Assembly (NCBI GenBank): GCA_963840645.1
Contig: CAWIZL010000004.1
Span: 267,470-331,469 of the forward strand
Reading direction: 5' to 3'
DNA: 64,000 bases
Source: Candidatus Doudnabacteria bacterium
GTDB lineage: Bacteria; Patescibacteriota; Doudnabacteria; UBA920; VMFF01
Part shown: piece after piece, positions 3,129-51,846 of the stretch
How positions within the stretch are numbered: position 1 is the first letter of the stretch
Layout: each line of letters opens with the position of its first letter
Notes under the pieces: generated by a model
The model's database searches: none
The model's input: the letters and a program-made list of their open reading frames with translations, nothing else
Told to the model about the DNA's origin: nothing
Position numbers and translations under genes: made by a program

Positions 3129-3669
3129 TAAATTGTCATTATTTCTTTCTCTTTGGCTGCTGCCAAATCTTTCACCTGCGTGTTGGCAGCATCGACTGCA
3201 ACCTGCAAATCCTTTTTCTCGTTTTCGAGGTCGTCTTTTGTCAGCGCATTCTCGCTCTCTTCGCGGTGCAGCTCTTTCACCATTTCTTCGCGCGCCGTGC
3301 GGATGGCAATGCGCGCCTGCTCTGCGAGGTGGCCGGCGACCTTCACCATTTCCTTACGACGATCTTCTGTCATTGGTGGCACCGACAGCCGAATGACAAT
3401 GCCATCATTGACTGGGTTCAACCCAATGTTAGATGCAATGATTGCCTTCTCAATGGCAGCCATGTTTGACTTGTCCCACGGCTGAACGACAATTGTCTTT
3501 GCATCAGGCGTGTTGAGCGATGCAATGTGTGCAATTGGCGTGCGCGTGCCGTACACGTCAACCTGAACAGTGTCGAGCAACGCAACGCTTGCGCGGCCAG
3601 TGCGCAACGCAGAGAGTCGTGCTTTAGGTGTTCAACGCACTTATCAAATTTTGAGGGGTCAATGGGCAT
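3128..3669 (-). CDS. frr: Ribosome recycling factor (frame interrupted once)
   Basis: MPIDPSKFDKCVEHLKHD (in ORF 3418..3684) continues into ORF 3128..3607 (RTGRASVALLDTVQVDVYG...). The break is near 3610. The stop overlaps the rseP start (TAATG). Confidence 0.9.
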
Positions 3670-3767
3670 GGGGCAAGTAGTCAATAGTTAATAGATACTA
3701 GACCTGTAGAGATAATTTTTCTTTTGATTAGTAGAGATTGCACAATTTAGCTACTAACTATTAACTA
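3670..3767. repeat. Stop-rich inverted-repeat junction element, copy A (frr | BNR gene)
   Basis: Left arm 3676-3694 agtagtcaatagttaatag. Right arm ctactaactattaactag overlaps the upstream gene's stop at 3765. The core resembles copies B and C. Confidence 0.7.
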
Positions 3768-4900
3768 GTAACTATTTATCTGCGAGGCAACAGATAGGCC
3801 GACGTACGTGATCTGCGGCAGCGTGGGGTCAATTGCAATTGCGCCAACCTGGTTGACGCCAGCTGGCAGCACCTGGGTTTGCCACGTTGTGCCTGCGTTC
3901 GTGGTCTTGTACATTGTCCCGCCAATGCTCGTGTATGCTACCATGCCGCTGTCTGTGCTCGCAACCACCCGCGAGAACACGTTCCCAGAGTTGCTGGTTG
4001 GCAACGTGACGTACATCCACTGGCTGCCATTGCTGACAGTTTTGTACAGACCGCTCGCAGTGGCAAGGTACATGTCGCCAGCTTGGGTCTGGTCTAGGGC
4101 GAAGCTGTAGAACAGGCTCACTGGCTGTGCTGACAGGCTCGTTGAACTAAAGTTGAGCGAACTTGCGGTGAGCTGGTTGACCAGCGAGCTTCCACGTCTT
4201 GCCGCTGTTGGTGCTCACCAGCAAGCCTTTGCGCTGAAGCAAAAGGTAGAGGTTGCTGTTGAGGCTGCTCATGCGAATGCCGAGGGCAACATCGCCAGTG
4301 TTCTGGGCTACTGTTGCCCACGTTACTCCGCCATCGTTGCTGGTGATCACAGTGCCCTCAGCCAGGGATGCAAACATTTGCATTGGATTTGCTGGGTTTG
4401 CGGTTACCCCTGTGACCTGGCTGTCTGGGCTCGCATCGTTGTAGGTCTGCGTCCAGGTCGCGCCGCTGTCTGTGCTCACCACAATTTTGCCGTGGGCGCC
4501 GTAGTCTCCAGCAGCAACAATTGCCGCTGGGTTTGACGGGTTCAGGTACAGGTCTTGCACGCTGAAGTTTACGAGGATGTTCTTCCACGTTGCTGCGCTG
4601 TCAGTTGAAACCCACAGGCCACCTGGGCCACCAGCGTAAACGGTGGTGTTGCTCGAAGGTGAGATTTGGAGCGCATTGATTTCTGCGCCCGCAATGCTCG
4701 ACGTTGAGCTCCACCTCGTCTGCTGGCTGCCACGTTGCGCCACCGTCAACTGTCTTGGCAATGCCGAACGTGCCAGAGACGCCCAGGCCGAACGGCGCGA
4801 GCGCGCTGCACCCTGCTGCAATGAGCGGGAAGGCGGCCACCACACAAACTTTCTTCGCAATGCTTTTTATTTTCGGATTCATTTTAAATTTCTTAGACAA
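3765..4900 (-). CDS. BNR/Asp-box repeat (sialidase or Ycf48-like beta-propeller) lipoprotein (frame interrupted twice)
   Basis: Fragments 4601..4900 (signal peptide with LIAAGCS lipobox), 4147..4860 and 3765..4121 are colinear. Six SxDxGxTW-type Asp boxes are present (STDSAATW, STDSGATW, SNDGGVTW, STNSGKTW, TTNAGTTW, TVDGGATW). Confidence 0.7.
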
Positions 4901-5738: not shown

Positions 5739-6743
5739 CTACCTCGCTGATAGTATGCTCTTCTTGTAGCTATCTAAATTTTCCAGTGCAATCCCAGTTC
5801 CCTTTGCGACACACAGGATTGCCTCTTCTGCCACGTAGGCTGGCACACCAATTGCCTGGGACACCATTTTGTCTAAGTTGCGCAGCAGCGCGCTGCCGCC
5901 AGTTAAAATCATGCCCTTGTCTATGATGTCTGAGGCGGCTCTGGAGGTGTCTTGCAAAACAGTGCGCACTGCGCGGACAATGTCGCGCAGCTCGTCTTGA
6001 ATTGCCTCAACAACGTCGTTGGTTGAAATGGTGACAGTTCGCGGCAAACCCTGGATCATGTCGCGTCCTTTTATTTCCATAGACTCTTCTTCGCTCACGC
6101 GAATGGCCGAGCCAATGGTAATTTTGATTTCCTCAGCTGTGCGGTCGCCAATTGCCAAGCCGTACTTGCGGCGGATGTAGTCTGCGATTGCCTGGTCAAT
6201 CTTGTTGCCGGCAACGCGCATTGACGTTGAAGTGACAATGCCGCCGAGCGATAGCACTGCAACGTCTGTTGTGCCGCCACCAATATCTATGATGAGGTTG
6301 CCAGATGCAGAGCCAATAGGAATGCCAGCGCCAATTGCAGCTGCAACTGTTTCCTTAATGACGTACGCAGCTTTTGCGCCAGCAGCTGTTGCCGCGTCAA
6401 CCACTGCGCGTCGCTCTGTGCTGGTGATGCCGCCTGGCACTGAGATCATGACCTCTGGCCTGAAGAAGCGTACGTTGCCGAGCGCTTTATTCATGAAGTA
6501 GCGCAGCATTGCCTCAATGACGCGGTAGTCTGCGATGACGCCGTCTTTCATTGGACGCGATGCGACAATTGTCTCTGGTGTGCGACCGAGCATGTCTTTA
6601 GCTTCTTGGCCAACTGCGAGCACGCGGTTGTCTTCTATTGAAATTGCGACCACTGTTGGCTCGTTGATGACAATCCCCTTCTTTGGGATGAAGACGAGCG
6701 TGTTTGCAGTGCCGAGGTCTATGCCGATTTTAGTTTGGAACAT
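5739..6743 (-). CDS. mreB: Rod-shape-determining actin homologue MreB
   Basis: Intact 334-aa ORF. IGIDLGTANTLV phosphate-1 motif and full-length MreB-like sequence. Confidence 0.95.
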   Translation of the reverse strand: MFQTKIGIDLGTANTLVFIPKKGIVINEPTVVAISIEDNRVLAVGQEAKDMLGRTPETIVASRPMKDGVIADYRVIEAMLRYFMNKALGNVRFFRPEVMISVPGGITSTERRAVVDAATAAGAKAAYVIKETVAAAIGAGIPIGSASGNLIIDIGGGTTDVAVLSLGGIVTSTSMRVAGNKIDQAIADYIRRKYGLAIGDRTAEEIKITIGSAIRVSEEESMEIKGRDMIQGLPRTVTISTNDVVEAIQDELRDIVRAVRTVLQDTSRAASDIIDKGMILTGGSALLRNLDKMVSQAIGVPAYVAEEAILCVAKGTGIALENLDSYKKSILSAR

Positions 6744-7850: not shown

Positions 7851-7906
7851 TATATTGCCCCTCTATTCGAATTGGGTTTCTTTCCCGAAACCGGAAAGCT
7901 GTCACC

Positions 7907-7935
7907 AATATACAGCTCTATTTGTTAAATGTCAA
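7907..7935 (-). promoter_or_regulatory. Sigma70-type promoter for the GRDP-like gene
   Basis: Minus strand: TTGACA (7935-7930), 17-nt spacer, TATATT (7912-7907). About 55 nt upstream of the ATG at 7850. AGAGGGG lies before the start. Confidence 0.5.
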
Positions 7936-7955
7936 GATAATACTTGGCAAGCATT

Positions 7956-8349
7956 TTATAAATAAAAACTCTCCAGCTTCTCAAAAGTTGCTGCTCGCTC
8001 CACATCGCCAACTTCGTGCGCTTGGTTCACGGACTTGTCTTCCCAGCGCGGATCTACATGAAAGTGCATATGAAAAACTTCTTGGCCAGCAGCTGGCTCA
8101 TTGGCCTGGGCAATGTGAATACCGTCACAGCCCAAACCTTTCTTCACGGCATTTGAGGTTCTGATGAAGCTCAGCCATGATCTTGCTACCAGTTTCAGCA
8201 TCGAGCGTGTAAATATCTTTAATGTGCTTCTTTGGCACAACCAACGGATGGTTTTCCAAAGACATAAATACAATGACGTCCTCGTCCTCGCTCAAAATGT
8301 CCGCTGGTATTTCGTGGTTTATTATTTTGCAAAAAATGCAACCGTTCAT
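7956..8349 (-). CDS. HIT-family nucleotide hydrolase (frame interrupted once)
   Basis: ORF 8125..8349 (MNGCIFCKII...) and ORF 7956..8273 (histidine triad HMHFHV) are colinear. The break is near 8150. Confidence 0.85.
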
Positions 8350-9673: not shown

Positions 9674-11000
9674 ATGAAACCAGTCTACCGCTACGGCATT
9701 ATCGCGCTCTGCTTCGTGATTTTTTTTGTGTTTGGCACTGTGCTCGTCATTTTCACGACGGGTGAGGTGTACGACGCGAGCACGCACAGCTTTGTTCGAA
9801 CGGGCATCATTTCTGCTGCGACAGTCCCCAGTGGCGCACAAATTTTTTTGAACGGAAAACTGGCTGGCACCACGCCCGTGCACATCCGGTTCCTCACGCC
9901 TGGAAACTACGACGTGAAAATCACAAAGCCTGGCTACGGTGACTGGGAAAAAACGCTGGCCGTGCGCGGCGACTTCACCACGTACGTGAACCCAGACATC
10001 AGCGCAGTGTACATGTACAAGAGCCAGCCAACCGTGACACAGGTAGCGGCCGACGTGCAAGATTTCAGCGCAGCTGGCGGCACGTTCGTGTACGCAACGC
10101 CCAGCGCTCTCGTGGTGGCCAGCGTAGCTGACCCGAGCAAGCAGAGCGAGTATGCAGCTCCTGCTGCGCTGAACCTTGCGGGAAGCCAGCTCACCACATC
10201 ACCTGGCGGACAGTTCATTTTAATTCAGACTGCCCAGCTAGCAGCCGTGTTTGACGTGTGGCTCGAAAAAATTTACCGTGCTGCCAACAGCACTGCCAGG
10301 CTCTGTCCAAATCACTGACACCGGATCTCTGTACTGGCTGAACGGCACGTCGCTCAGCCAAGTTACGTGGCAGAGCCAGAACGTGGTGGCAACGCCAATC
10401 GCACAAAACGTGCTTGCCTTTGATGCCACAGGCCAAGGCATTTACGCTATTCAAAAAAACAGCCTGGCGTTTCTGCAATCTCCCACACTGCAGCCAACAA
10501 CGCTGCGAGAAAACTTGCCAAACTGGGTGAACGCGCGTCTCTACGTGAACAGCCAGAACCAAATTTTCATTAACGCTGATGGAGCGCTCTACAGCGTGAG
10601 CAGCGGCCTGAGTGCAATTGGCAGCAACGTGCAGACAGTCCTGTTCTACGAATCGTACGGCCAAGTGCTGTTTGCAACCACGAACGAAATCGACCTGTAC
10701 AACGTGACTGCTGGTTCAACGCAGCTCGTGGCAAGGACGTCTGCCACAATCAGCAACCCACAGGCAACGCTGGCGGAAGGATCCGTGTTCTTCATTGGAA
10801 ACGGAGAGCTGCAGACAATTGAGACTGACAGCCGCGACCACCAGAACAGCTACGTGCTGGCGTCGGCTGGTGCAGGGGCAAAGTCCCCGGGGCAGGGGGC
10901 AAAGTCCCCGGGGCAGGGGGCAAAGTTCTACGTGAGCAGCGATGCAAAGTACGTTGTGCTGCTCGACGGTGGCAACCTCACGCAGCTGCAGGTGCGCTAG
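9674..11000 (+). CDS. Membrane-anchored PEGA-domain protein (frame interrupted once)
   Basis: N-terminal TM helix and a PEGA region (SGAQIFLNGKLAGTTPVHIRFLTPGNYDVKITKPGY) in ORF 9674..10318. It continues in ORF 10251..11000. The break is near 10260. Confidence 0.65.
10875..10926 (+). repeat. 21-bp in-frame tandem repeat (2.5 copies) inside the PEGA gene
   Basis: ggggcaaagtccccggggcag occurs at 10875 and 10896, with a partial third copy. It encodes GAKSPGQ GAKSPGQ GAKF. Confidence 0.9.
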
Positions 11001-11406
11001 CATCGAGTGCGGCATTCACCAAAGTATCTGCTGCCTGGTTTTTCTCTCTGCGCACGTGGCTGAACGTAATTTTTTTGAATGAAGGCCTCATGGCCAGAAC
11101 CTGAGATGCCAGTGTCTTGAGCACCGGCTCTTTAATTTTGTACTGGCCGTTGAGCTGCTTGACCACGAGCTCGCTATCAAGGTAGCACTCAACCTCTGCG
11201 TAGCCAGCGTCTCGCGCCCACGCAACAGCAGCAATGAGCGCACTGTACTCAGCGTAGTTGTTCGTCTGCTCGCCAATGGCGCGAGAAATTTCGTGAACCT
11301 TGTTCATGTTGCCAGCAGCACCGCGCTCCCAAAACACTGCCCCAATTGCAGCTGGACCTGGGTTGCCGCGCGCACCGCCGTCTGTGTGGATAGTTAGCGT
11401 ATTCAT
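10978..11406 (-). CDS. rnhA: RNase HI-family ribonuclease
   Basis: MNTLTIHTDGGARGNPGPAAIG, then NNYAEY, then a DSELVVKQ pattern. The ATG at 11406 overlaps the recJ stop (ATGA). TTG at 11460 is less likely. Confidence 0.8.
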   Translation of the reverse strand: MNTLTIHTDGGARGNPGPAAIGAVFWERGAAGNMNKVHEISRAIGEQTNNYAEYSALIAAVAWARDAGYAEVECYLDSELVVKQLNGQYKIKEPVLKTLASQVLAMRPSFKKITFSHVRREKNQAADTLVNAALDASAPAAA

Positions 11407-13062
11407 GCTTGCTTCCTGTAGTCTACCACGCGGAGCTTCACGCGCCGCGCTCCGTTCCACGAATCGTCAATCAGCTCGAACGCCAAATCAACCCTTTCAC
11501 CCGGCTGCAGGCTCTGCGCTGATTTTCCAAACCCGAACGCAATGCACTTCACCGTGCTGCCGCTCGGCAGGCGAACCGTGAGCTGCAGGTGCTTTCCCTC
11601 TTTGCCAACAGGGTTCACGTCCAAAATTTCACAACCACGCAGCATGAAGAGCGGGCTGCGGTTGTCAACGCCAAACGGCTGGAGCTGCTGCACTGCATCG
11701 TACGTCTCTGCTACGACCTCAGCTGGCAGCAGCTCTGCCTCAATGTCTAAAACTTTGGCAAACTTTGCCACGTCTGCGTTCTCGCCCGCGTACGCGAGCA
11801 AATCGCGGTAGAAAATCTCTACGTCTTGCGTCTTTAAGGTGAAGCCTGCTGCAGCTGCGTGGCCGCCGTAGCGAACCAAGTGCTGCTTTGTAGCTGTGAG
11901 CGCATCAACAACGTTGAACCCTCCGAGGCTGCGTGCAGAGCCAGTAGACTCAACCTCGCCACGCTCGAGCACGAGCACTGGCCTAGAAAATTCTTCGACC
12001 AGCTTTCCCGCAACCAAGCCAACCACGCCCTTTGGCCAGTCTGTGCCAGATGCCAAGAGCACTGGGTTTTTTGCAATGAGCTCAAGCTGGCTGCGTGCCT
12101 CAGACATGACGTTCTCTGTTAAAACTTGGCGGCGGGCGTTCAAGGTTTCAAGCTGTGCCGCCAGCTCTGCCGCGCGGGCCGCATCATCTGTCGTGAGGAG
12201 GTCAAACGCAATTGACGCGTGCTCAATGCGGCCAGCTGCGTTGATGCGCGGCGCAACCATGAACCCCAGCGTGTACGTGTCGTACGGCTCGCGCGCAGAC
12301 TTGAGCAGCTCACGCAGCCCAGCCCACTTTGTCTTTGGCAAAACTTTCAGCCCGTAGCCAACCAAAATCCTGTTCTCGCCAATTAAAGAGTGGCAGTCTG
12401 CAACAGTGCCAATGGCAACTAAATCCAAGAACCACTTCTCGTAGCCGCCTGGCAGCTCGTGCATGTCGCGGTACGAGAGCAAGCCACACGCTAGCTTGAA
12501 CGAAACCCCAACTCCAACAAGCTCGTGGTACGGGTACGCGTCACTCGGATTTTTTGGGTTGATGAGCGCGTACGCACCAGGAACTGCGGCCTGTGAGCTC
12601 GTGGTGGTCTGTGATGATAAGGTCAATTCCGTGCGCCTTGCAAAACTCAGCCTCTGCTGTTGAGTTTGTGCCGCAGTCAACCGTAACGACAACGGACACG
12701 TCCTGGGCTGCAATACTTTCAAACGCTGCGAGGTTCAAGCCGTACCCTTCTGTGAATCGATCAGGAATGTACGTGCTCACGTCAGCGCCCAGCACCTTCA
12801 GGCAGCGAAAAATGACAGCGTTGGCTGTAATGGCGTCTGCGTCGTAGTCGCTGTAAATTAAAATTTTCTCCCCACCTGCTACTGCCTCCCAAATTCTGTC
12901 GCACGCAGCTCGCATGTCTTTAAAGAGGAACGGGTCGTGCATGCTCGCGTAGTCTAGGCGCAAGAAATCCGCAGCACCCTCTTGCGGGATGCCGCGGTTC
13001 TTGAGCAGCTGCTCAACCAAGCTCTTCTCTGTTCTCTCTCGAACGTTCCAGACTTTCTGCAT
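11403..13062 (-). CDS. recJ: Single-stranded-DNA-specific exonuclease RecJ (frame interrupted once)
   Basis: ORF 12541..13062 carries the DHH motifs (IYSDYDADAIT, TVDCG, ITDHHE). ORF 11403..12722 carries DHHA1 (GGHAAAAGF) and the OB-like C-terminus. The break is near 12600. Confidence 0.85.
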
Positions 13063-13231
13063 GGGAACAGTATACAGTAGTTAGTAGTTAGTAGTTAGTA
13101 GTTAGTAGTTAGTAGTTAGTAGTTAGTAGTTAGTAGTTAGTAGTTAGTAGTTAGTAGCTAAATTCGAACGGCAGGCTAACGAAAAGAAAGATTTTACGGA
13201 TCCGTCTATTGTCTACTAACCAGTAACTATT
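13063..13231. repeat. Stop-rich junction element, copy D (recJ | gpmI), core inverted relative to copies A-C
   Basis: The left arm is expanded into the TAGTTAG array. The core 13155-13210 (tagctaaattcgaacggcaggctaacgaaaagaaagattttacggatccgtcta) aligns to the reverse complement of the copy C core. Confidence 0.75.
13078..13157. repeat. Heptanucleotide microsatellite (TAGTTAG) x 11.4
   Basis: Perfect 7-nt periodicity counted from 13078 to 13154, plus a trailing tag. Confidence 0.97.
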
Positions 13232-14813
13232 GCCCCCAGCAAGCTCTGCCCTGTCATTTCAGGAGGCTTCTGCATGCCAAACAGCTCTAAAATTGTTGGC
13301 GCAATGTCAGAGAGTGCACCCTCTGGCATGATTGTTGATAGGTTCGGGTAGTCTAGGCGCTGGTCTGGCTGTGCACGCGCTAGCTCTGCGGCCACTACAA
13401 TGAATGGCACGGGGGCTGTTGTGTGGTCTTTGTTTATCTTGCCAGTGTCTGGGTCAACCATGTTCTCACAGTTGCCGTGGTCAGCGGTCACGATGAACAC
13501 GCCACCAACTGCGAGCACGGCATCTGCAATGCGGCCAATCTGAACATCCATTGCCTTCACGGCAGCGGTGGCAGCCTCAAGGTTGCCGGTGTGGCCAACC
13601 ATGTCTCCGTTTGCAAAGTTCACCACGTACAGGTTGAACTTTGGATCTGGAATTTTTGTGAGCAGTGCATCGGTGAGGGCTGCAACAGACATTTCTGGGT
13701 GGTCTGAGTAGTTGTTGGTGTTGTCTGGCTCTGGATGAACGTGCGCTCCTCGCCTGGCAGTGCATCCATTTTACCGCCATTGAAGAACGAGGTCACGTGC
13801 GCAAACTTCTCGCTCTCTGCAGAGTGGTACTGCCCCATGCCAGCTGCTGAAATAACAGACGGCAGGTCATCGACCAAGAGCGTTGGGCCGAACGCGACGT
13901 CAACCGCGATCTTATCCATGTACGATGTCATGGTGACAAAGCACAGGTCATCCAGCTTGGGGTGTGGGTGTTCTATCTGCATGCGCTCTGGCATGACGAA
14001 CGCCAGCGTGAGCTGGAGCGCCCTGTCTTGCCTGAAGTTGAAGAAGATGATGGCATCGCCAGCAGAAACTTTTGCCACTGGTGCGCCGTTCTCTACAATG
14101 ACCGTTGGCTTGATCATCTCGTCGAACACGTTGTGGCTGTAGTTCTCTGCAATGCACGAAAGGGGCGATGAGGCAACCTCGCCGACGCCGTTCACCATTG
14201 CCTGGTACTCCATCTCTGTTTGGTCCCAGTGGTTTCCCCTGTCCATTGCGTAGAAGCGACCAGAAATTGTTGCCACCTTGCCAACACCTATCTCTGAAAT
14301 CTTTTTGTTGAGCTTCTCGAGCGAGCGGAGCGCCACTTTTTCATCTGTGTCGCGGCCGTCCGTTATCATGTGGATGTAAGTCTCCTTAATCCCCTGGTCT
14401 GCTGCGAGCGCGAGCAGGGCGTACAGGTGCTCATCGTAGCTGTGCACGCCGCCTGGGCTCACCATGCCGAGCAGGTGCAGCTTTGAGCTGTTCTTCTTGA
14501 CGTGGGCACAGGCGTTCAAGAATGGTGGCATCTTGAAAAATTCACCGCTCTCAATGGACGTGGTGATGCGCGGCAGGTCTTGCGCCACGATGCGGCCAGC
14601 ACCCATGTTCAAGTGTCCAACCTCGGAGTTGCCAACCTCGCCCCACGGCAGGCCAACGAGCGGGCCAGATGCCTGCAGCGTTGCCGCTGGGTACCTGGCT
14701 ATTAGAGCATTGATGTGCTCTGGCTCTGCGAACGCAATTGCGTTGCCGCGAGAGCGCGGCGCAACGCCGAAGCCATCTAAGATGAGGAGCACAACTTTTT
14801 TGTAGATTTTCAT
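13216..14813 (-). CDS. gpmI: 2,3-bisphosphoglycerate-independent phosphoglycerate mutase (frame interrupted once)
   Basis: ORF 13620..14813 (LLILDGFG..., NSEVGHLNMGAGR) and ORF 13216..13692 (VNFANGDMVGHTG..., TADHGN) are colinear. The break is near 13715. Confidence 0.9.
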
Positions 14814-14830
14814 ATACTCATACTTTATAC

Positions 14831-16024
14831 CTATCCACCGAGTGCTGCAATTGCGGGCAGGCGTGTGCCCGCGAGGTACGCGAGCATCGCGCCGCCAGCT
14901 GTAGAGACAAAGTCAACCATGCTGGTCACCTTTGCGTGGTCGAGCAGGTTCAGCGTGTCTCCGCCGCCAACGACGCCGAACGCAATGCCCTGGCACCGCG
15001 CTGAGAACAGCATGGCAATGCTCACAGACCCGTGCGAGAACTGCGGCTGCTCAAATAGGCCGAGCGGCCCGTTCCAAACCATTTGCCTGGCAGCTTTAAT
15101 AACCTCTGCGAACTTTAAAATGGTAGCGGGGCCAATGTCAAAAATCACCTCGTCTGGGTGCACGTCTGTTGGCGCACACACGCGGATGCTGCTGTAGTCT
15201 GGCTTTGCCACGACAAAATCGACCGGCAGCACAATTTTTTCGCCAAAGTTGCGCAGCACGTCTTGCGCGAGCTGCAGGCTATCCTTTTCGCAAATTGACT
15301 TGCCAATCTCGTAGCCTTTTGCAAAGAGCAGGAGGTTCGCTGGCCCACCTGCAACGAGAATTGCATCGACGCGGCGACCCAGGTTCTGCACAGCACCAAC
15401 TTTGTCAGAAATCTTTGCGCCGCCAACTATGAAGAGCGAGGGGTGCTCTGCAGATGTGGCTATGCGGCTGAGCGCCTTCAGCTCCAGCTCAACGTTCAAG
15501 CCGGCAAACGACGGCAGGTAGCGCTCAACGCGAGACACAGAAGATTCATCCCTGTGCGCCATTGCAAAAGCGTCAAACACGTACAGATCGGCCAAGCTCG
15601 CCAAGGTTTTGGCAAACGTTTCATCGCACGCTTCTTCTTCTGCGTAGAAGCGGATGTTCTCGAGGAGCACCAGGTCGCTGGACTGCATGGCGTGCAGTTT
15701 GTCCTGGCTGTCTTTTTGACGAATGTCTGAATTGAAGAATGCCAGCTGCCCGCTTTCGTTCCCAACAGCGCGCCCCAAAATTTCTGCGAGGCACTGTGCC
15801 TGCGGCATGAGAGACTCTGACGTGTCCCAACCTTTTGGACGACCAGCTTTTGAAACAATGGTTACGCGACAGCCAGCTTCTAGCAAGAACTTCACCGTTG
15901 GCGCTGACTTCTGTATTCTGAAATCGTCCGTGACCGTGGTGCCATCGTGGGGCGCATCCAAATCTAGGCACAGCAGCACTGTCTTGCCGGCTAGATCTTT
16001 TTGCTCACGGATGTAGCGGATCAT
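14831..16024 (-). CDS. pgk: Phosphoglycerate kinase
   Basis: Intact 397-aa ORF with full-length PGK-like sequence (FIVGGAKISDK, GGGDT). Confidence 0.93.
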   Translation of the reverse strand: MIRYIREQKDLAGKTVLLCLDLDAPHDGTTVTDDFRIQKSAPTVKFLLEAGCRVTIVSKAGRPKGWDTSESLMPQAQCLAEILGRAVGNESGQLAFFNSDIRQKDSQDKLHAMQSSDLVLLENIRFYAEEEACDETFAKTLASLADLYVFDAFAMAHRDESSVSRVERYLPSFAGLNVELELKALSRIATSAEHPSLFIVGGAKISDKVGAVQNLGRRVDAILVAGGPANLLLFAKGYEIGKSICEKDSLQLAQDVLRNFGEKIVLPVDFVVAKPDYSSIRVCAPTDVHPDEVIFDIGPATILKFAEVIKAARQMVWNGPLGLFEQPQFSHGSVSIAMLFSARCQGIAFGVVGGGDTLNLLDHAKVTSMVDFVSTAGGAMLAYLAGTRLPAIAALGG

Positions 16025-16128
16025 GGAACAGTAGTTAATAGTTACTAGATAGTAGACAGGTCCAGTAAAATTTTCATTCTATTGATAAGCGGCAGTAATT
16101 TAGCTATTAACTATTACCTATTGACTAC
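16025..16128. repeat. Stop-rich junction element, copy B (pgk | gap)
   Basis: 16032-16041 tagttaatag pairs with 16104-16113 ctattaacta (10/10). The core is aaaattttcattctattgataagcggcagtaatttagcta. The gap stop TAG (16125) lies inside the right arm. Confidence 0.75.
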
Positions 16129-17147: not shown

Positions 17148-17248
17148 GTTTATTGCTTGGTGGTTAATAGTTACACTTAGTATACAGTATAAGTATTAAG
17201 TAGATGAATTTCGTGCGCTACTGCATACTTATACTAACTACTGTCACA
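17148..17248. repeat. Stop-rich inverted-repeat junction element (arms only, different loop)
   Basis: agtataagtat...taagtag on the left pairs with ctact..atacttatact on the right. AT-rich, built of TAG/TAA units. Confidence 0.55.
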
Positions 17249-17792
17249 CTACGGCTGTGACCAGTCTACGGGCGTGACACCCTTCACGATTTGCCTGGCT
17301 GTGACGACCACTGGGATGAGGCTTCCGGCAGTGGTGTCGTAGAACGCCTCGTACTGCGTGCCTGGCACTGCTGAGTACACGTAGTACGAGCCAGCTGGCA
17401 CTGCAACGGAAAAATTGAGTGCCCCGTCCGCAAGTGGATGGAATACGTCTGGGTGTGCACAGTACAGAGATGAAGCGTTCACGGCAATGGCACACACGTA
17501 CAGCCCGCTGTCTTCTACGGCATCTGGCGAGTACTGCGTTGTGCCCGTGATGTGCGCTGTCGTGAGTGGCGAGGTGAGCGTCTTGAACACGGGCATCGGC
17601 GTTGCCTGCGTGCCACTGTGCGTCGGCACGTGCGCCACTGGAGAAAAGTCAACCACTGAGGCCTGCGAGTAGCTGGCGAGCCCCGTTCGTGTAGACCAAG
17701 GCTCCGAGCGCGCATATGCCGAGCATCACTATCACGAAAACCCTGAGTGCTACGTTGCTTCCCCCTACAGATGTACCTACAATGTCTGGCAT
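17249..17792 (-). CDS. Hypothetical membrane-anchored protein (frame interrupted once)
   Basis: ATG at 17792 gives MPDIVGTSVGGSNVALRVFVIVMLGICALGALVY (TM helix). A break near 17660 joins it to ORF 17249..17656, which is beta-rich (PAGSYYVYS). Confidence 0.4.
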
Positions 17793-40534: not shown

Positions 40535-40647
40535 AGGTGCAGGTAGTTGGTAGTTAGTAGTTGATAGCTGGAGCCGATAGTTAGTATAGGGTAGCAGATG
40601 GTAACGCGCAAACGTGCGGATGCGATCTATTAACTACCAACTATTAA
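40535..40647. repeat. Stop-rich junction element, copy E (secY | rplO), core in the copy D orientation
   Basis: 40544-40556 tagttggtagtta pairs with 40631-40643 taactaccaacta (13/13). gtgcggatgcgatcta resembles the gcggatccgtcta core end. Confidence 0.75.
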
Positions 40648-41085
40648 CTATTTGTTCTTGTGTTCCCCGCCAGCTGCCTTGATGAGGGCGACTGCACTCT
40701 CAGAAGCAGGCACGCTCACGTTGAGCTTGCGCTTGAGCTCGCCGCCGCTCACTATTTTTGCGATTTCATTGCGCTGGATGAGGTTCTTTGCGCGGAGGCT
40801 CGCGAGCGTGATGGCTTCGCCATCGGCGAACGCGTTGAGCTTGCCGAGGCGAATTGCCACTGCCTTGTCGCCAATAGCCTTGAAGCCGCGCAGCTTTGGC
40901 ATCTGGCGGATGATTGGCTGGCGTCCACCCTCAAACCCTGGGCGCACGTTGCCACTCTTGCGGGCGCGCTGCCCCTTTGCGCCACGCGTTGAGTACGTGC
41001 CGTGGCCAGAGCCAAGCCCGCGGCCAACAACTTTGCGGCGCTTGGTGGATCCTTTGTAAACCTTGAGTTCGTGTAGTTTGATCAT
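40648..41085 (-). CDS. rplO: 50S ribosomal protein L15
   Basis: MIKLHELKVYKGSTKRRKVVGRGLGSGHG... ATG at 41085 is chosen within ORF 40648..41121. Confidence 0.92.
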   Translation of the reverse strand: MIKLHELKVYKGSTKRRKVVGRGLGSGHGTYSTRGAKGQRARKSGNVRPGFEGGRQPIIRQMPKLRGFKAIGDKAVAIRLGKLNAFADGEAITLASLRAKNLIQRNEIAKIVSGGELKRKLNVSVPASESAVALIKAAGGEHKNK

Positions 41086-44510: not shown

Positions 44511-44549
44511 TGGGGAGTAGTTAGTATAAGTAGTTAGTAGCCTGAAACG

Positions 44550-45035: not shown

Positions 45036-45449
45036 TTAATCGTGCTTCGTAATAAACTTTGTCTTAATTGGGAGCTTGTACGCTGCGAGCCTCATTGCTT
45101 CTTTTGCCTGTGTCTCTGTGACGCCGTCCATCTCGAAGAGCACCTTGCCTTTCTTGACGACAGCCACGAAGTGGTCTACAGCACCTTTGCCTCCGCCCAT
45201 TGGGCTCTCGTTGCCATGGACAGTGACAGGCTTGTCTGAGAACACCCGAATCCACACCTGGCCTCCGCGCTGGATGTAGCGGGTCATTGCGCGACGAGCT
45301 GCCTCGATCTGGCGAGCTGTCATCCACGCATTCTCGAAAGCCTTCAGCCCGTAGCTGCCAAACGCAAGGTAGTTGCCTGCCATTGCCTTGCCCTTTGTGC
45401 GGCCTCGGTGCTGCTTCCGGTGCTTCATTTTTTTAGGAATCATTGCCAT
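45036..45449 (-). CDS. rplP: 50S ribosomal protein L16
   Basis: Intact 137-aa ORF with [15 protein letters not shown]. Confidence 0.93.
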
Positions 45450-45554
45450 GGGAGCAAGTAGTTAGTATAAATAGTTATTAGACGGATCCGCAAAATTTTT
45501 CATTCTATTGGTAGGCTGTCGTAGTTTAGCTACTGAATACTTATACTAACTACT
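45450..45554. repeat. Stop-rich junction element, copy C (rplP | rpsC)
   Basis: 45457-45473 agtagttagtataaata pairs with 45538-45554 tacttatactaactact (16/17, the mismatch being a G-U equivalent). The core is tagacggatccgcaaaatttttcattctattggtaggctgtcgtagtttagcta. The rpsC stop (45546) lies inside the right arm. Confidence 0.8.
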
Positions 45555-46866: not shown

Positions 46867-46934
46867 GATTTTATGCCTACTGAATACTTATACTGACTAC
46901 TTGCCTTTTGCCTTTGCCGGTTCTGCTGCTTCTG

Positions 46935-47234
46935 TTAGCTTTGCCTTCTCAGCTGTTGGGCTGCTGCTTCCTCAGCCTTTGCTATCTTGCCGCCGTGCCT
47001 GTAGAACTTGCGCGTTGGTGAAAACTCGCCGAGCTTGTGCCCAACCATGTTCTCAGTGACAAACACTGGCACGTGCGTCTTGCCGTTGTGAACCTCAAAC
47101 GTGAAGCCCACAAACTCTGGGGCAATCGCGCTGTCGCGCGCCCAAGTCTTGAACTTGTCGCCGCGCTTGCCAGCTGCAACTCGCTTCACGAGCCGCTCGT
47201 CTATGTATGGACCTTTCTTTAGTGATCGTGACAT
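46935..47234 (-). CDS. rpsS: 30S ribosomal protein S19 (true 3' end may be 46897 after a frame correction)
   Basis: [15 protein letters not shown]... An alternative frame from about 46955 gives [20 protein letters not shown], with a TAG inside the usual AGTAG arm. Confidence 0.9.
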
Positions 47235-47340
47235 GGGCTCAGATAGTTAATAGAGAATAGAAAATAGGCGAACTGTGATACTTTTTGCTGTACTTGATAT
47301 GCGCATGTGCTTTAGCTATTGACTATTTGCTATTGCCTAC
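47235..47340. repeat. Stop-rich junction element, diverged copy G (rpsS | rplB)
   Basis: agatagttaatag on the left, ctttagctattgactatttgctattgcc on the right. The rplB stop (47337) lies inside the arm. Confidence 0.55.
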
Positions 47341-49154: not shown

Positions 49155-49180
49155 GGTAGTTAACGGCTATTAACTATTAC

Positions 49181-49843
49181 CTATTTCTTCTTGTCTTTCT
49201 TCACAGCTTGCACTGGCTCGAGGTCTTTGATCTTGCCAGTTGAAACAACCTGGACAACACCGTTGCGGTGGCCAGGTACTGCGCCGCTGACTGCGATGAG
49301 CTTGCGCTCAAGGTCAATGTCAACGATCTGGAGATTTTTTACGGTGACGTTCACGCCGCCCATGCGGCCTGCCATGCGAAGACCTTTGCGAACGTGCTGT
49401 GGGTAGCGCTGCCCAATGGAACCTACTGCGCGAGGCTTGTCGTGGCCGTGGGATGCAGGCATACCTTTGAAGCCGTGTCGCTTCATTGCACCTGCAAAGC
49501 CACGACCCTTCATGACGCCGCTCACGTCTACGATTTCGCCAACCTGGAAGTTTGAAATATCAATTTGGCTGCCAACCTCAATGCCTGCCATGTCTTCACC
49601 TTCTGCGCGGAACTCTCTGATAACGGCAAAGGCCTGACCCTTTGTGTGGCCAGACACTGATTTGCTGATGTTCTTCTTCTTGCCAAAGCCAACCTGGACC
49701 GCTGCGTACTTGTCTTTGCCTGTGGTGGTCTTAACCTGCGTAACTGTGACAGGGCCTGCTTCGAGCACGGTAACAGGCACCACCGTGCCTGAAGGCAGGA
49801 AGTGCGATGTCATGTTCAGCTTTTTAGCGAGGGTAAACTTCAT
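49181..49843 (-). CDS. rplC: 50S ribosomal protein L3
   Basis: MKFTLAKKLNMTSHF...GKGFAGAMKRHGF. ATG at 49843 is chosen within ORF 49181..49891. Confidence 0.92.
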   Translation of the reverse strand: MKFTLAKKLNMTSHFLPSGTVVPVTVLEAGPVTVTQVKTTTGKDKYAAVQVGFGKKKNISKSVSGHTKGQAFAVIREFRAEGEDMAGIEVGSQIDISNFQVGEIVDVSGVMKGRGFAGAMKRHGFKGMPASHGHDKPRAVGSIGQRYPQHVRKGLRMAGRMGGVNVTVKNLQIVDIDLERKLIAVSGAVPGHRNGVVQVVSTGKIKDLEPVQAVKKDKKK

Positions 49844-49858
49844 AGTGTGTTTGATTCT

Positions 49859-49978
49859 TGGATTCGCAGGCTTGAGGCAAGTTCGAGGCAAAGTGTGAGG
49901 ATTTCTCGAGGCGTAGTCTACTACGGTGAGAGAAATCCGAACACTTTAACAAAGAAATTGACCAAGCCTGCGAATCCA
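49859..49978 (-). promoter_or_regulatory. 120-nt rod-like nested hairpin just upstream of rplC
   Basis: Four nested stems. Outer 16 bp: 49859-49874 tggattcgcaggcttg pairs with 49963-49978 caagcctgcgaatcca. Then aaagtgt/acacttt, then ggatttctc/gagaaatcc, then cgtag/ctacg. Confidence 0.55.
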
Positions 49979-49980
49979 AC

Positions 49981-50033
49981 CCAAATAAAAAACCGAGACG
50001 ATCCGCTTGCTTGCACAAATAAACCGTCTCGGT
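49981..50033 (-). terminator. Terminator-like hairpin plus U-run inside the rpsJ-rplC spacer (possible attenuator)
   Basis: 9-bp GC-rich stem: 49992-50000 accgagacg pairs with 50025-50033 cgtctcggt. On the minus strand it is followed by ttttttattt. Confidence 0.5.
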
Positions 50034-50196
50034 TCTTCAGTAAGCTGTATTGGATTCTGCTGAGCCAGCTAATTAAGCTGGAAATTGAATTTTTAACCTG
50101 CGTGCGGCTTGGTTTGGGTTCAGAGGTTGTCGCCCATTCTGCGAAGTTCTCTGTTTCCTTGCCTTGCCTACTAAATACTTACACTGACTACTTTCC

Positions 50197-50517
50197 CTAG
50201 TTCATCTTGATCTCCACGTCCACACCAGCTGGGAGATTGAGGTTCGTGAGAGAATCAATCGTTTTTGGAGTTGGATCGCTGATGTCAATGAGGCGCTTGT
50301 GCACCCGCATCTCAAACTGCTCTCGGCTGTCTTTGTGCACGAACGTTGAGCGAAGCACTGTGTACTTCGTCTTCTCCGTTGGCAGAGGGATTGGACCTGT
50401 GATCTGCGCGCCACTGCGCTTAGCTGTATCGACAATCTGCTTTGCAGACTGGTCAATGAGCTTGTGGTCGTACGCTTTGATCTTTATTCTGATTCTAGAC
50501 TTTGCCGCCTGGTCCAT
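50197..50517 (-). CDS. rpsJ: 30S ribosomal protein S10
   Basis: Intact 106-aa ORF with [17 protein letters not shown]. Confidence 0.93.
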
Positions 50518-50654: not shown

Positions 50655-51846
50655 CTACTTTATGATGGAAACCACGACACCAGCGCCTACAGTGTGGCCT
50701 CCTTCGCGGATGGCGAAGCGCTGCTTTTCTTCAAGGGCGACTGGAGTTAATGAGCTTCACGGTGAACTTCACTGTGTCGCCTGGCATAACCATTTCCTGG
50801 CCTTCTGGCAAGGGTAACTTCGCCGGTCACATCTGTTGTGCGGATGTAGAACTGTGGCTTGTAGCCTTTGAAGAACGGAGTGTGGCGACCACCTTCTTCT
50901 TTCGTCAAGATGTAAACTTCGCCTTCGAACTCGGTGTGAGGCGTAACGCTGCCTGGCTTAGCCAAGACCTGTCCGCGCTCTACGTCGTCTTTCTTTGTAC
51001 CGCGGAGCAAGATACCTGCGTTGTCGCCAGCCATACCTTCATCGAGCTGCTTGTTGAACATTTCAATACCAGTGATGACAGTCTTTGCTGTTGGGCTGGA
51101 TACCGACGATTTCGATTTCTTCGTTGATCTTAACGATGCCGCGCTCAATACGGCCTGTAACCACAGTGCCACGGCCTTCAATAGAGAAGATGTCTTCAAT
51201 TGGCATGAGGAACGGCTTGTCTGTGTCGCGAACTGGGTCTGGGATGAACGTGTCGAGTGCATCCATGAGCTTCATGATTGAAGGTTCGCCAATCTCTGAC
51301 TGGTCGCCTTCAAGAGCTTTAAGAGCTGAACCGCGGATAATTGGGTGTTGTTGCCCTGGGAAGTCGTACTTTGTGAGAAGGTCGCGAATTTCTTCTTCAA
51401 CGAGGTCGAGAAGTTCTTTGTCGTCAACCATGTCAAACTTGTTCATGAAAACGACAATGTAAGGTACGCCCACCTGCTTAGCAAGCAAGAATGTGCTCAC
51501 GGGTCTGAGGCATTGCGCCGTCAGTTGCGGAAACAACCAAGATAGCGCCGTCCATTTGGGCGGCACCTGTGATCATGTTCTTGATGTAGTCAGCGTGGCC
51601 TGGGCAGTCTACGTGTGCGTAGTGGCGCTTTTCTGTTTCGTATTCTGCGTGAGACGTGTTGATGGTAATACCGCGAGCTTTTTCTTCTGGAGCATTGTCG
51701 ATGGAATCGTACGCACGAGCCTTTGCAAAGCCCTTCTTTGCCAAAACTGTGGTGATTGCAGCTGTGAGCGTTGTCTTGCCGTGGTCAACGTGGCCAATGG
51801 TACCAACGTTCACGTGGACTTTGCTTCGTTCAAACTTATCTGCCAT
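50655..51846 (-). CDS. tuf: Elongation factor Tu (frame interrupted at least 3 times)
   Basis: The gene is in four colinear pieces. [26 protein letters not shown] starts at ATG 51846. It continues through ORFs 51478..51879, 51063..51566 and 50747..51262. The tail is [30 protein letters not shown] with stop at 50655. Confidence 0.92.

Follow-up and report, generated by a model that had tools for sequence, protein, structure and literature searches.

What is a conserved stretch of about 55 nt, apparently usable in either orientation, doing in the gene junctions of a bacterium with very little space between its genes? Genomes of the CPR/Patescibacteria are about 1 Mb in size, tightly packed and generally regarded as repeat-poor, and the stretch of DNA analysed here (64,000 nucleotides, hereafter the window) is placed in Candidatus Doudnabacteria (Patescibacteria/CPR) by its RpsC, PGK and GpmI proteins. 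By RpsC its relatives are L001 (96%, Logan SRR30280140), L003 and L052 (90%, ENA GROS21) and L005 (79%, the best GTDB representative); by GpmI they are L173 (86%, JGI 3300056815) and L174 (83%, ENA ERZ25039472). Spurious 1-nt insertions are frequent in the window, at about one in every 300 nt. Four of them, judged against L003, break tuf into five tblastn segments, and gpmI and recJ are broken as well; exact base counts, lengths and stop positions given below are therefore uncertain.

A sequence-only reading of the window had proposed five copies of this core (A to E), and all five strings that it quoted are present where it placed them. Copies A to D are secure, but E is not detectable as a core, and a sixth copy, F, had been overlooked:

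3699-3753, minus strand: core copy A, identical to the quoted string
13155-13208, plus strand: core copy D, which reads TAGCTAAATTCGAACGGCAGGCTAACGAAAAGAAAGATTTTACGGATCCGTCTA
16053-16106, minus strand: core copy B, identical to the quoted string
40565-40629, plus strand: the E string
45479-45532, minus strand: core copy C, identical to the quoted string
47265-47318, minus strand: core copy F, in the rplB-rpsS junction

The core family formed by A, B, C, D and F is real and is not a resemblance among AT-rich spacers. Leave-one-out nhmmer profiles recover each member (E-values of 2.7e-5 for A, 1.9e-11 for B, 8.8e-13 for C, 1.1e-6 on the plus strand for D, and 5.7e-6 for F), against a next-best window match of E >= 0.28; the motif TAGCTAAAYT occurs four times in the window versus 0.19 expected, and a degenerate pattern for the core centre four times versus 0.09. 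With the end anchors removed, the interiors of B, C and D are 0.68-0.76 identical, compared with 0.53 +/- 0.055 for shuffles. That the cores might look alike only as AT-rich spacers do, the outcome by which the family was to be refuted, would suit E, whose interior identity to the other cores (0.38-0.52) is not above that shuffled expectation, and in part the interior of F, which is partly no closer to the other cores than shuffled sequence; given the profile E-values and pattern counts, we consider the chance of this negligible for the family as a whole. The centre of element E shows no detectable membership of the core family in either orientation, and a profile of 12 copies does not detect it at E<=1000 in a 200-nt target with all filters off. 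These 12 secure copies comprise five in the window and seven in relatives (L001, L173/L051 and L174).

How free, then, is the orientation of the core? Mapped by tblastn with a relative's proteins, gap, pgk, gpmI, recJ and rnhA all lie on the minus strand, with the gpmI stop at 13216-13218 and the recJ ATG at 13062; since both genes that flank D are on the minus strand, the plus-strand copy D is inverted relative to transcription and to A, B, C and F. The core thus does occur in both orientations, through D, with E lending no support. Counted over the window and its relatives, as had been proposed, 11 of the 12 secure copies face forward relative to transcription and only D is inverted (one of five in the window, none of seven in the relatives), so that the earlier claim of orientation independence was overstated, secure as the one inverted copy is. 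Counted by independent junction (seven), six are forward and one is securely inverted (two with the undetectable E), a bias that is not significant.

The core forms the middle part, largely unpaired, of a palindromic intercistronic repeat element of about 100-170 nt, in which it is flanked by two arms. The elements of the window are laid out as follows, all positions on the minus strand unless stated otherwise:

3669-3774, minus strand: element A, upstream of frr; 5′ arm 3774-3754 (four TAGs at period 7), core 3753-3699, 3′ arm 3698-3672, then ATG 3671-3669
13209-13239, minus strand: 5′ arm of element D, overlapping the last gpmI codons and the stop at 13216-13218
13063-13154, minus strand: 3′ arm of element D, TAGCTA(CTAACTA)x11 CTGTATACTGTTCCC, adjoining the recJ ATG at 13062
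13076-13157, plus strand: the 3′ arm of element D read on this strand, 11.7 perfect AGTAGTT units
16025-16127, minus strand: element B, between gap and pgk; stop TAG at 16127, 5′ arm to 16107, core 16106-16053, 3′ arm 16052-16025, ATG at 16024
40535-40650, minus strand: junction element E, between rplO and secY; typical arms, with four TAGs at period 7 and CTA at period 7
45450-45554, minus strand: element C, between rpsC and rplP; 5′ arm 45554-45533 with the in-frame stop TAG at 45548, core 45532-45479 (containing CGGATCCG), 3′ arm 45478-45450, ATG at 45449
47235-47339, minus strand: element F, between rplB and rpsS; 5′ arm 47339-47319 with four TAGs at period 7, core 47318-47265, 3′ arm 47264-47235, ATG at 47234

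Directly after core D the plus strand reads GTCTATTGTCTACTAACCAGTAACTATTGCCCCC.

Elements always lie between co-directional genes and run from stop to ATG. On the coding strand the 5′ arm, which has no C and is rich in TAG, begins at the stop codon of the upstream gene or overlaps it. Its reverse complement forms the 3′ arm, which has no G and ends in CC(C) next to the downstream ATG. This CC(C) stands immediately 5′ of the ATG in about 14 of 19 junction modules, and in most cases the element ends 0-1 nt from the ATG. Arms are 17-92 nt long and built of tandem 6-7-nt units, their complementarity reaching, for example, 82% over 28 nt in C, and a GGG...CAG / CTG...CCC clamp is predicted to close the stem at its foot, bringing stop and start together. 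The two anchors of the core, TAGCTAAA and GTCTA, are themselves the innermost arm units, which the sequence-only reading had not noticed; the former is the last AATAGCT unit and the latter the complement of TAGAC. Three to four TAGs recur at an exact 7-nt period, in units of AATAGNN, along the 5′ arm of each of A, B, E, F and the rplC-rplD module, matched by CTA at a 7-nt period in the corresponding 3′ arms, a spacing that places a stop in every reading frame of both strands. The 25-mer AGTAGTTAGTATAAGTATTCAGTAG, with its complement, represents another type of arm, present in C and in a hairpin upstream of gap. Because 5′ arms lack C and 3′ arms lack G, an arm cannot pair with itself; within the family, however, a 5′ arm pairs with the 3′ arms of other elements as well as with its own, and such interchangeable arms are as expected of shared terminal inverted repeats. 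As the arms are mutually inverted repeats, an inverted copy would still fit its junction. At D the arm encodes the C-terminal tail of GpmI (...AIVTG*) in place of the variable 9-18-residue tail of relatives, and so supplies the gpmI stop codon.

Arms also occur without a core, and of the roughly 24 junctions of the S10/spc cluster eight hold the module in some form. The core-less modules in the window are these:

14814-14833, minus strand: solo 5′-type arm between pgk and gpmI, TAGGTATAAAGTATGAGTAT, then ATG
17179-17251, minus strand: core-less hairpin upstream of gap, with the 25-mer 5′ arm, a 14-nt loop and a 3′ arm
44511-44540, minus strand: solo 3′-type arm between rpsQ and rplN, with a counterpart in L001 and a degenerate form even in L003
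46212-46243, minus strand: solo 3′-type arm between rplV and rpsC, CTACTAACTACTCATACTAACTACTGTCCC, adjoining the ATG, with a counterpart at the same L001 junction
46877-46899, minus strand: solo 5′-type arm between rpsS and rplV
49155-49183, minus strand: miniature core-less arm pair between rplC and rplD, TAGGTAATAGTTAATAG CCG TTAACTACC, then ATG
50168-50199, minus strand: solo 5′-type arm just past the rpsJ stop, between rpsJ and rplC

The distribution of these modules differs among close relatives. L001 has cores at the F and C junctions and solo arms at the same three junctions as the window, its arms being made of 6-nt AGTATC/AGTATA units. L003 and L052 (RpsC 90%) have plain spacers of 4-45 nt there, save for a degenerate 3′-type arm between rpsQ and rplN. 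Among the glycolytic genes, full elements are found at gap-pgk and pgk-gpmI in L173/L051, and at gap-pgk, pgk-gpmI and recJ-rnhA in L174; in the window the recJ and rnhA genes overlap. The pgk-gpmI junction, where both of these relatives have a complete arm-core-arm element, holds a 17-nt arm alone in the window. The junction between gpmI and recJ, which carries D in the window, is 12-18 nt long in L173 and L052 and holds a tRNA-Thr in L174. In all, gpmI-recJ, pgk-gpmI, recJ-rnhA, rplO-secY and S10-operon junctions vary among the window, L001, L003/L052, L173 and L174, and these presence/absence differences indicate that elements have been both gained and lost on a short timescale. We infer D to be an inverted, lineage-specific copy.

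An alternative account of the inverted copy is that the core acts as an inverton, a DNA switch flipped at each locus by site-specific or homologous recombination between its inverted-repeat arms, with a resulting change in downstream expression. Such a switch would share with our elements a segment set between inverted repeats and found in both orientations among paralogs, and the apex of another Doudnabacteria family (L008, described below) likewise occurs in both orientations. Invertons have an internal promoter and an invertase nearby; here the core holds no promoter-like sequence in either orientation, and the window ORFs include no invertase or recombinase near it. Moreover, the orthologs compared keep their orientation (C and its L001 counterpart; F and its L001 counterpart; B and its counterparts in L173 and L174), and the emptiness of the D junction in relatives speaks for an insertion and not a flip. 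We therefore regard an invertible switch as very unlikely.

The reading that we prefer, to which we give a probability of about 0.5, is that the element is a palindromic intercistronic repeat of the Correia/ERIC/RUP/MITE-like kind, co-transcribed with its neighbours, whose arms form an mRNA hairpin that masks the downstream start. Its mobility, the mRNA hairpin and the effect on downstream translation are all inferred. The MITE-like origin suggested by the sequence-only reading fares well on several counts: the element is small (100-170 nt), non-coding and multi-copy (five secure cores and at least eight arm-only modules in 64 kb); it has terminal inverted repeats, albeit as arms of variable length in tandem 6-7-nt units; and it is polymorphic in presence between related genomes. 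The same suggestion fails on target-site duplication, none being seen in comparison with the empty junctions of L003, L052 and L173; relative to these, the spacer is replaced all the way from stop to ATG, together with part of the gpmI tail, and is not simply interrupted. No transposase, recombinase or RAYT was found among 30 window ORFs (64 kb of an approximately 1-Mb genome) or in the relatives' contigs, and Y1_Tnp has no match in the ORFs scanned. One ORF in L174 with an HTH_38 domain was considered as a transposase and set aside, as it is isolated and no catalytic domain adjoins it. An element that ends 0-1 nt from the ATG is hard to obtain from random insertion, which points to functional selection or growth in place. 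The ATG-abutting ends, the variable tandem arms and the lack of a target duplication thus leave room for a role selected by the host.

Among the closest known miniature repeats are the Correia elements (CREE/NEMIS) of Neisseria, which are about 100-155 bp long, intergenic, and have terminal inverted repeats around a conserved core; they are co-transcribed, form a hairpin that is an RNase III substrate, occur in either orientation and vary in presence among strains, and their long form carries stop codons in all frames (PMC2649163, PMC2229807). Binding by both RNase III and IHF has been described for them (PMC2649163). Correia elements differ in having fixed 26-bp repeats and a TA duplication, whereas the elements here have variable tandem 6-7-nt arms, lack a duplication and span exactly from stop to ATG; neither the IHF site nor the end promoters of Correia are evident in the Doudnabacteria element. 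Its host, Candidatus Doudnabacteria, belongs to another phylum than Neisseria, and its ends (GGG..CAG / CTG..CCC with heptad arms) set it outside the Correia family; the likeness is one of anatomy, and sequence kinship is not to be expected. ERIC/IRU of enterobacteria and RUP of pneumococcus are similarly imperfect palindromes of about 107-127 bp, transcribed, intergenic and found in either orientation (PMC2229807), but their sequences and hosts are unrelated and they have not been reported to abut a start codon or to be made of heptad repeats. How ERIC affects an mRNA varies with the orientation of the element and with refolding induced by the ribosome (PMC2229807), and stop codons in all six frames are known in intergenic miniature repeats such as RUP (PMC2229807). 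REPINs, mobilised by RAYTs, also consist of two inverted units around a less conserved spacer in a hairpin of about 90-110 nt, leave solo units as decaying remnants, and have spacers diverse in both length and sequence and a long vertical inheritance (PMC3337134). Each REP unit, however, is a short palindrome, whereas the arms here are C-free or G-free and do not self-pair; the REPIN spacer pairs, whereas our core is unpaired; and no RAYT was found in the ORFs scanned. A full-text search of the literature found no report of such repeats in the host phylum, and none seems to have been described there before.

If the family is a non-autonomous miniature repeat, as its multiple copies and its gain and loss between close relatives suggest, it could have spread through some transposase or through ectopic recombination between its interchangeable arms, and the solo arms and core-less pairs would be its apparent products of decay or deletion. 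Having inverted repeats for arms, an inserted element would show both neighbouring genes the same kind of sequence in either orientation, and its all-frame TAGs would let it end an ORF that it had truncated. Inside operons it would presumably be co-transcribed, its arms pairing in the mRNA so that the upstream-stop region engages the bases just ahead of the downstream AUG; translation of the downstream gene may then depend on ribosomes finishing the upstream one, that is, on translational coupling. The hairpin could also be a site for RNase III or for mRNA stability.

Predicted folds of the region from stop-24 to ATG+5 are in keeping with such pairing, with the arms paired and the core as the loop. 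Scoring of 11 arm-core-arm elements predicts for nine of them that the 12 nt leading up to the AUG pair with the upstream-stop region (P 0.5-0.9); the two lower values are 0.34 for the L173 pgk-gpmI element and 0.57 for D. For C (-37.5 kcal/mol, z -4.3) and for F (-27.6, z -2.8) the predicted hairpin is clearly more stable than shuffles, while those of B, D and the L001 counterpart of C (z about -0.2) are no more stable than shuffled sequence.

What constraint acts on the core itself? RNAalifold places no consensus pairs in the core over eight copies. Orthologous cores are 0.69 (C and its L001 counterpart) and 0.56 (F and its L001 counterpart) identical, compared with 0.665 at fourfold-degenerate sites between the same two genomes; as a whole, the core drifts at about the neutral rate. 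Kept across four genomes are TAGCTAAA, the 10-mer TACCAATCAA and the A-run that follows it, and what the core needs appears to be limited to these short motifs. Copies differ from one another by 25-45%, which gives no sign of a recent burst. Over about 55 nt, mean identity is 0.60 among within-genome paralogs, 0.58 among orthologs and 0.56 among other pairs, differences that are not significant and give no indication of concerted evolution.

The motif conservation raises the question of whether the core works in cis, on mRNA or DNA, as a functional element that depends on its orientation. It might be an A-rich single strand on which ribosomes stand by or S1 lands, or a protein site at TACCAATCAA and its A-tract, D then being a non-functional or differently acting inverted copy. 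That this 10-mer and A-run are the best conserved part across four genomes, that 11 of the 12 secure copies share one orientation with respect to transcription, and that predictions leave the core unpaired at the hairpin apex all fit such a role. Yet the overall divergence of orthologs is about neutral, the motif is degenerate within the window (TATCAATAGA, TACTAATCAA, GCTAACGAAA, TATCAAGTAC), the bias in orientation by junction (6:1 secure, 6:2 with E) is not significant, and core-less arm pairs and solo arms fill equivalent junctions; on balance we think a cis-acting core unlikely, though worth keeping in mind.

A sense-strand scan for sigma-70-like promoters and intrinsic terminators has no match in any core and Rfam none at its gathering threshold in the whole window, which agrees with the earlier judgement that the core is not a plain promoter or terminator. 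The lone match of the promoter and terminator scan is weak, antisense and in A. Readings by eye of -35/-10 pairs through core and arms in both orientations gave inconsistent spacing, and were dropped, as were a small ATG-led core ORF (MKI.../MKN...), present in four of 12 copies only with no conserved ORF running through the core, and the IHF consensus WATCAANNNNTTR, of which the copies match ATCAA but not TTR. The window contains no tRNAs. Its RplP protein, looked up by exact match, has no recorded counterpart. A metagenome-wide pattern scan returned, among the matches listed, chance ones only, none with arms or a full-length profile match.

The feature of the core that had drawn attention was its GGATCC-centred palindrome, proposed as a symmetric protein-binding site. 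The two palindromes, ACGGATCCGT at 13196-13205 in D and CGGATCCG at 45483-45490 in C, are indeed perfect and in place, as would suit a symmetric binding or methylation site at the functional heart of the core. They are confined to these two copies, however; A, B, F and all seven copies of the relatives are without it, among them C's ortholog in L001 (RpsC 96%), where CAATCCGCTCTA stands at that position. C and D, at an identity of 0.72-0.73, are close paralogs, so that the shared palindrome counts as a single inherited feature. GGATCC alone occurs 12 times in the window versus about 6.8 expected. Because it is restricted to C and D and missing from the ortholog of C, we conclude that the palindrome is incidental, an accident inherited in one sub-lineage and without a role; as the functional site of the core it is highly improbable.

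The arms offer a different candidate for activity. Other Doudnabacteria have stop-to-ATG hairpins of the same design with different arm and loop sequences: in L008 a family has AATAGNN arms around a CTGCAG apex (the apex found in both orientations, as noted above), and three further unrelated junction hairpins in that genome are each complementary to themselves only; the arms of L013 are of a TAGGTTR type. Arrays of (TAGNNNN)n occur in L007/L011, L013 and L033, some of them immediately ahead of intrinsic terminators. L008 and L013 have eight to nine runs of three period-7 TAGs and about 40 other CPR loci have zero; about 0.08 per 20 kb is expected by chance.

It is conceivable that such arms are themselves active, (UAGNNNN)n being the sites of an oligomeric RNA-binding protein akin to HutP or TRAP that gates the hairpins, with the core as no more than a linker joining two binding faces. 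HutP binds three XAG motifs with 4-nt spacers at two sites 12-17 nt apart and melts a hairpin (PMC2425495), and the (XAG-N4)x3 of the Bacillus hut terminator resembles the arrays here in its run of at least three period-7 UAGs, set on the 5′ side of a hairpin that controls downstream expression by opening (PMC2425495). Three to five period-7 TAG units are found in the window, L008, L013, L007/L011 and L033, the triplet being always TAG while the 4-nt spacers vary, and arrays also stand alone just before intrinsic terminators. The hut system, however, is a single regulatory site with a known protein, whereas the arrays here are many and dispersed, and no protein like HutP (PF09021) was seen among the window ORFs tested. 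The closest relatives, L001 and L173, have the same elements with 6-nt AGTATC/AGTATA units and no periodic TAG, and the period-7 TAGs are explained equally well as all-frame stops, a known trait of miniature repeats (PMC2229807). A HutP-like array is in our view distinctly unlikely.

A broader possibility, which we hold to be rather unlikely, is that the junction elements, far from being selfish passengers, are a host system of operon punctuation: hairpins would take the place of Shine-Dalgarno initiation and tune translational coupling, UAG arrays would act as all-frame terminators or as HutP/TRAP-like binding arrays that open the hairpin, and the core would be a single-stranded standby platform. 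Read by eye and not as a systematic survey, most ribosomal-operon genes of the window and of L003 show no evident GGAGG-type Shine-Dalgarno sequence before their starts.

Whether mobile repeat or host device, these elements mean that about a third of the S10/spc junctions, in the most conserved operon of the cell, together with several glycolytic junctions, carry a palindromic repeat that runs from stop to start. Stop codons and C-terminal tails that derive from a repeat are a practical hazard for gene callers, and long heptamer arrays are one for assemblers. If the elements are tolerated passengers, they would show how a miniature repeat may survive in spacers of 10-30 nt by bringing its own all-frame stops and a G-free end compatible with a start codon. 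If instead they are used by the host, they would provide a simple and testable way to couple or grade operon expression in a lineage without evident Shine-Dalgarno sequences in its ribosomal operons.

At the junction between gpmI and recJ, where the window carries core D (the only securely inverted copy of the junction-element core), a relative, L174 (ENA ERZ25039472; GpmI, 83%), has a 404-nt insert (7887-8292) in which the opposite strand encodes a tRNA-Thr(GGT). The longest tandem array of the window also lies at this junction, between core D and the recJ start: it comprises 11.7 copies of AGTAGTT, all perfect (13076-13157; score 164), and is likely to be a slippage-prone tract of variable length. 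A second perfect tandem repeat, of 21 nt (GGGGCAAAGTCCCCGGGGCAG, 2.5 copies), occupies 10875-10926, where the surrounding ORFs have no Pfam match.

Single-base insertions outside homopolymers disrupt the essential genes tuf, gpmI, recJ, tkt, murA and proS in the window, with four in tuf when L003 (a relative with 90% identical RpsC) serves as reference, and L174 has damage of a like kind. The insertions in the window suggest a long-read assembly that was left unpolished, rather than pseudogenes. Three of the disrupted genes are located as follows:

50655-51846, tuf
13228-14813, gpmI
11406-13062, recJ

Other Doudnabacteria carry comparable features. L008, a different Doudnabacterium (RpsC, 70%), has a separate family of junction elements, whose arms are of the AATAGNN type and whose CTGCAG apex occurs in both orientations (AACTGCAGC vs CCTGCAGTT). 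In four further loci (TAGNNNN)3-5 arrays are solitary and lie immediately 3′ of stop codons, and several of these arrays immediately precede an intrinsic terminator, so the TAG array is also found where no complementary arm accompanies it.

L008 6790-6861, 7496-7519, 7947-7970, 13338-13401 and 14852-14868, junction elements
L013 3211-3227 and 17001-17031, (TAGNNNN)3-5 arrays
L033 2669-2699, (TAGNNNN)3-5 array
L007 3214-3237, (TAGNNNN)3-5 array
L011 3414-3444, (TAGNNNN)3-5 array

Start-codon context was read at element-free window junctions (e.g. 43245, 42598, 44802) and at L003 junctions, where ribosomal-operon starts are preceded by AAC(C/T)AT or similar G-poor strings and no GGAGG-type Shine-Dalgarno sequence is present; the TGA stop codon is rare (1 of 25 in L003). 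Within the S10 ribosomal-protein operon, the rpsJ/rplC spacer (49850-50165) is unusually long, at ~350 nt, and holds a hairpin followed by a T-run (GAACCGAGACGG...CGTCTCGGTTTTTT) that is conserved in L003, where the corresponding region is 6291-6509. Rfam gives no match here; a role as an attenuator or as the leader of a ribosomal-protein gene is possible.
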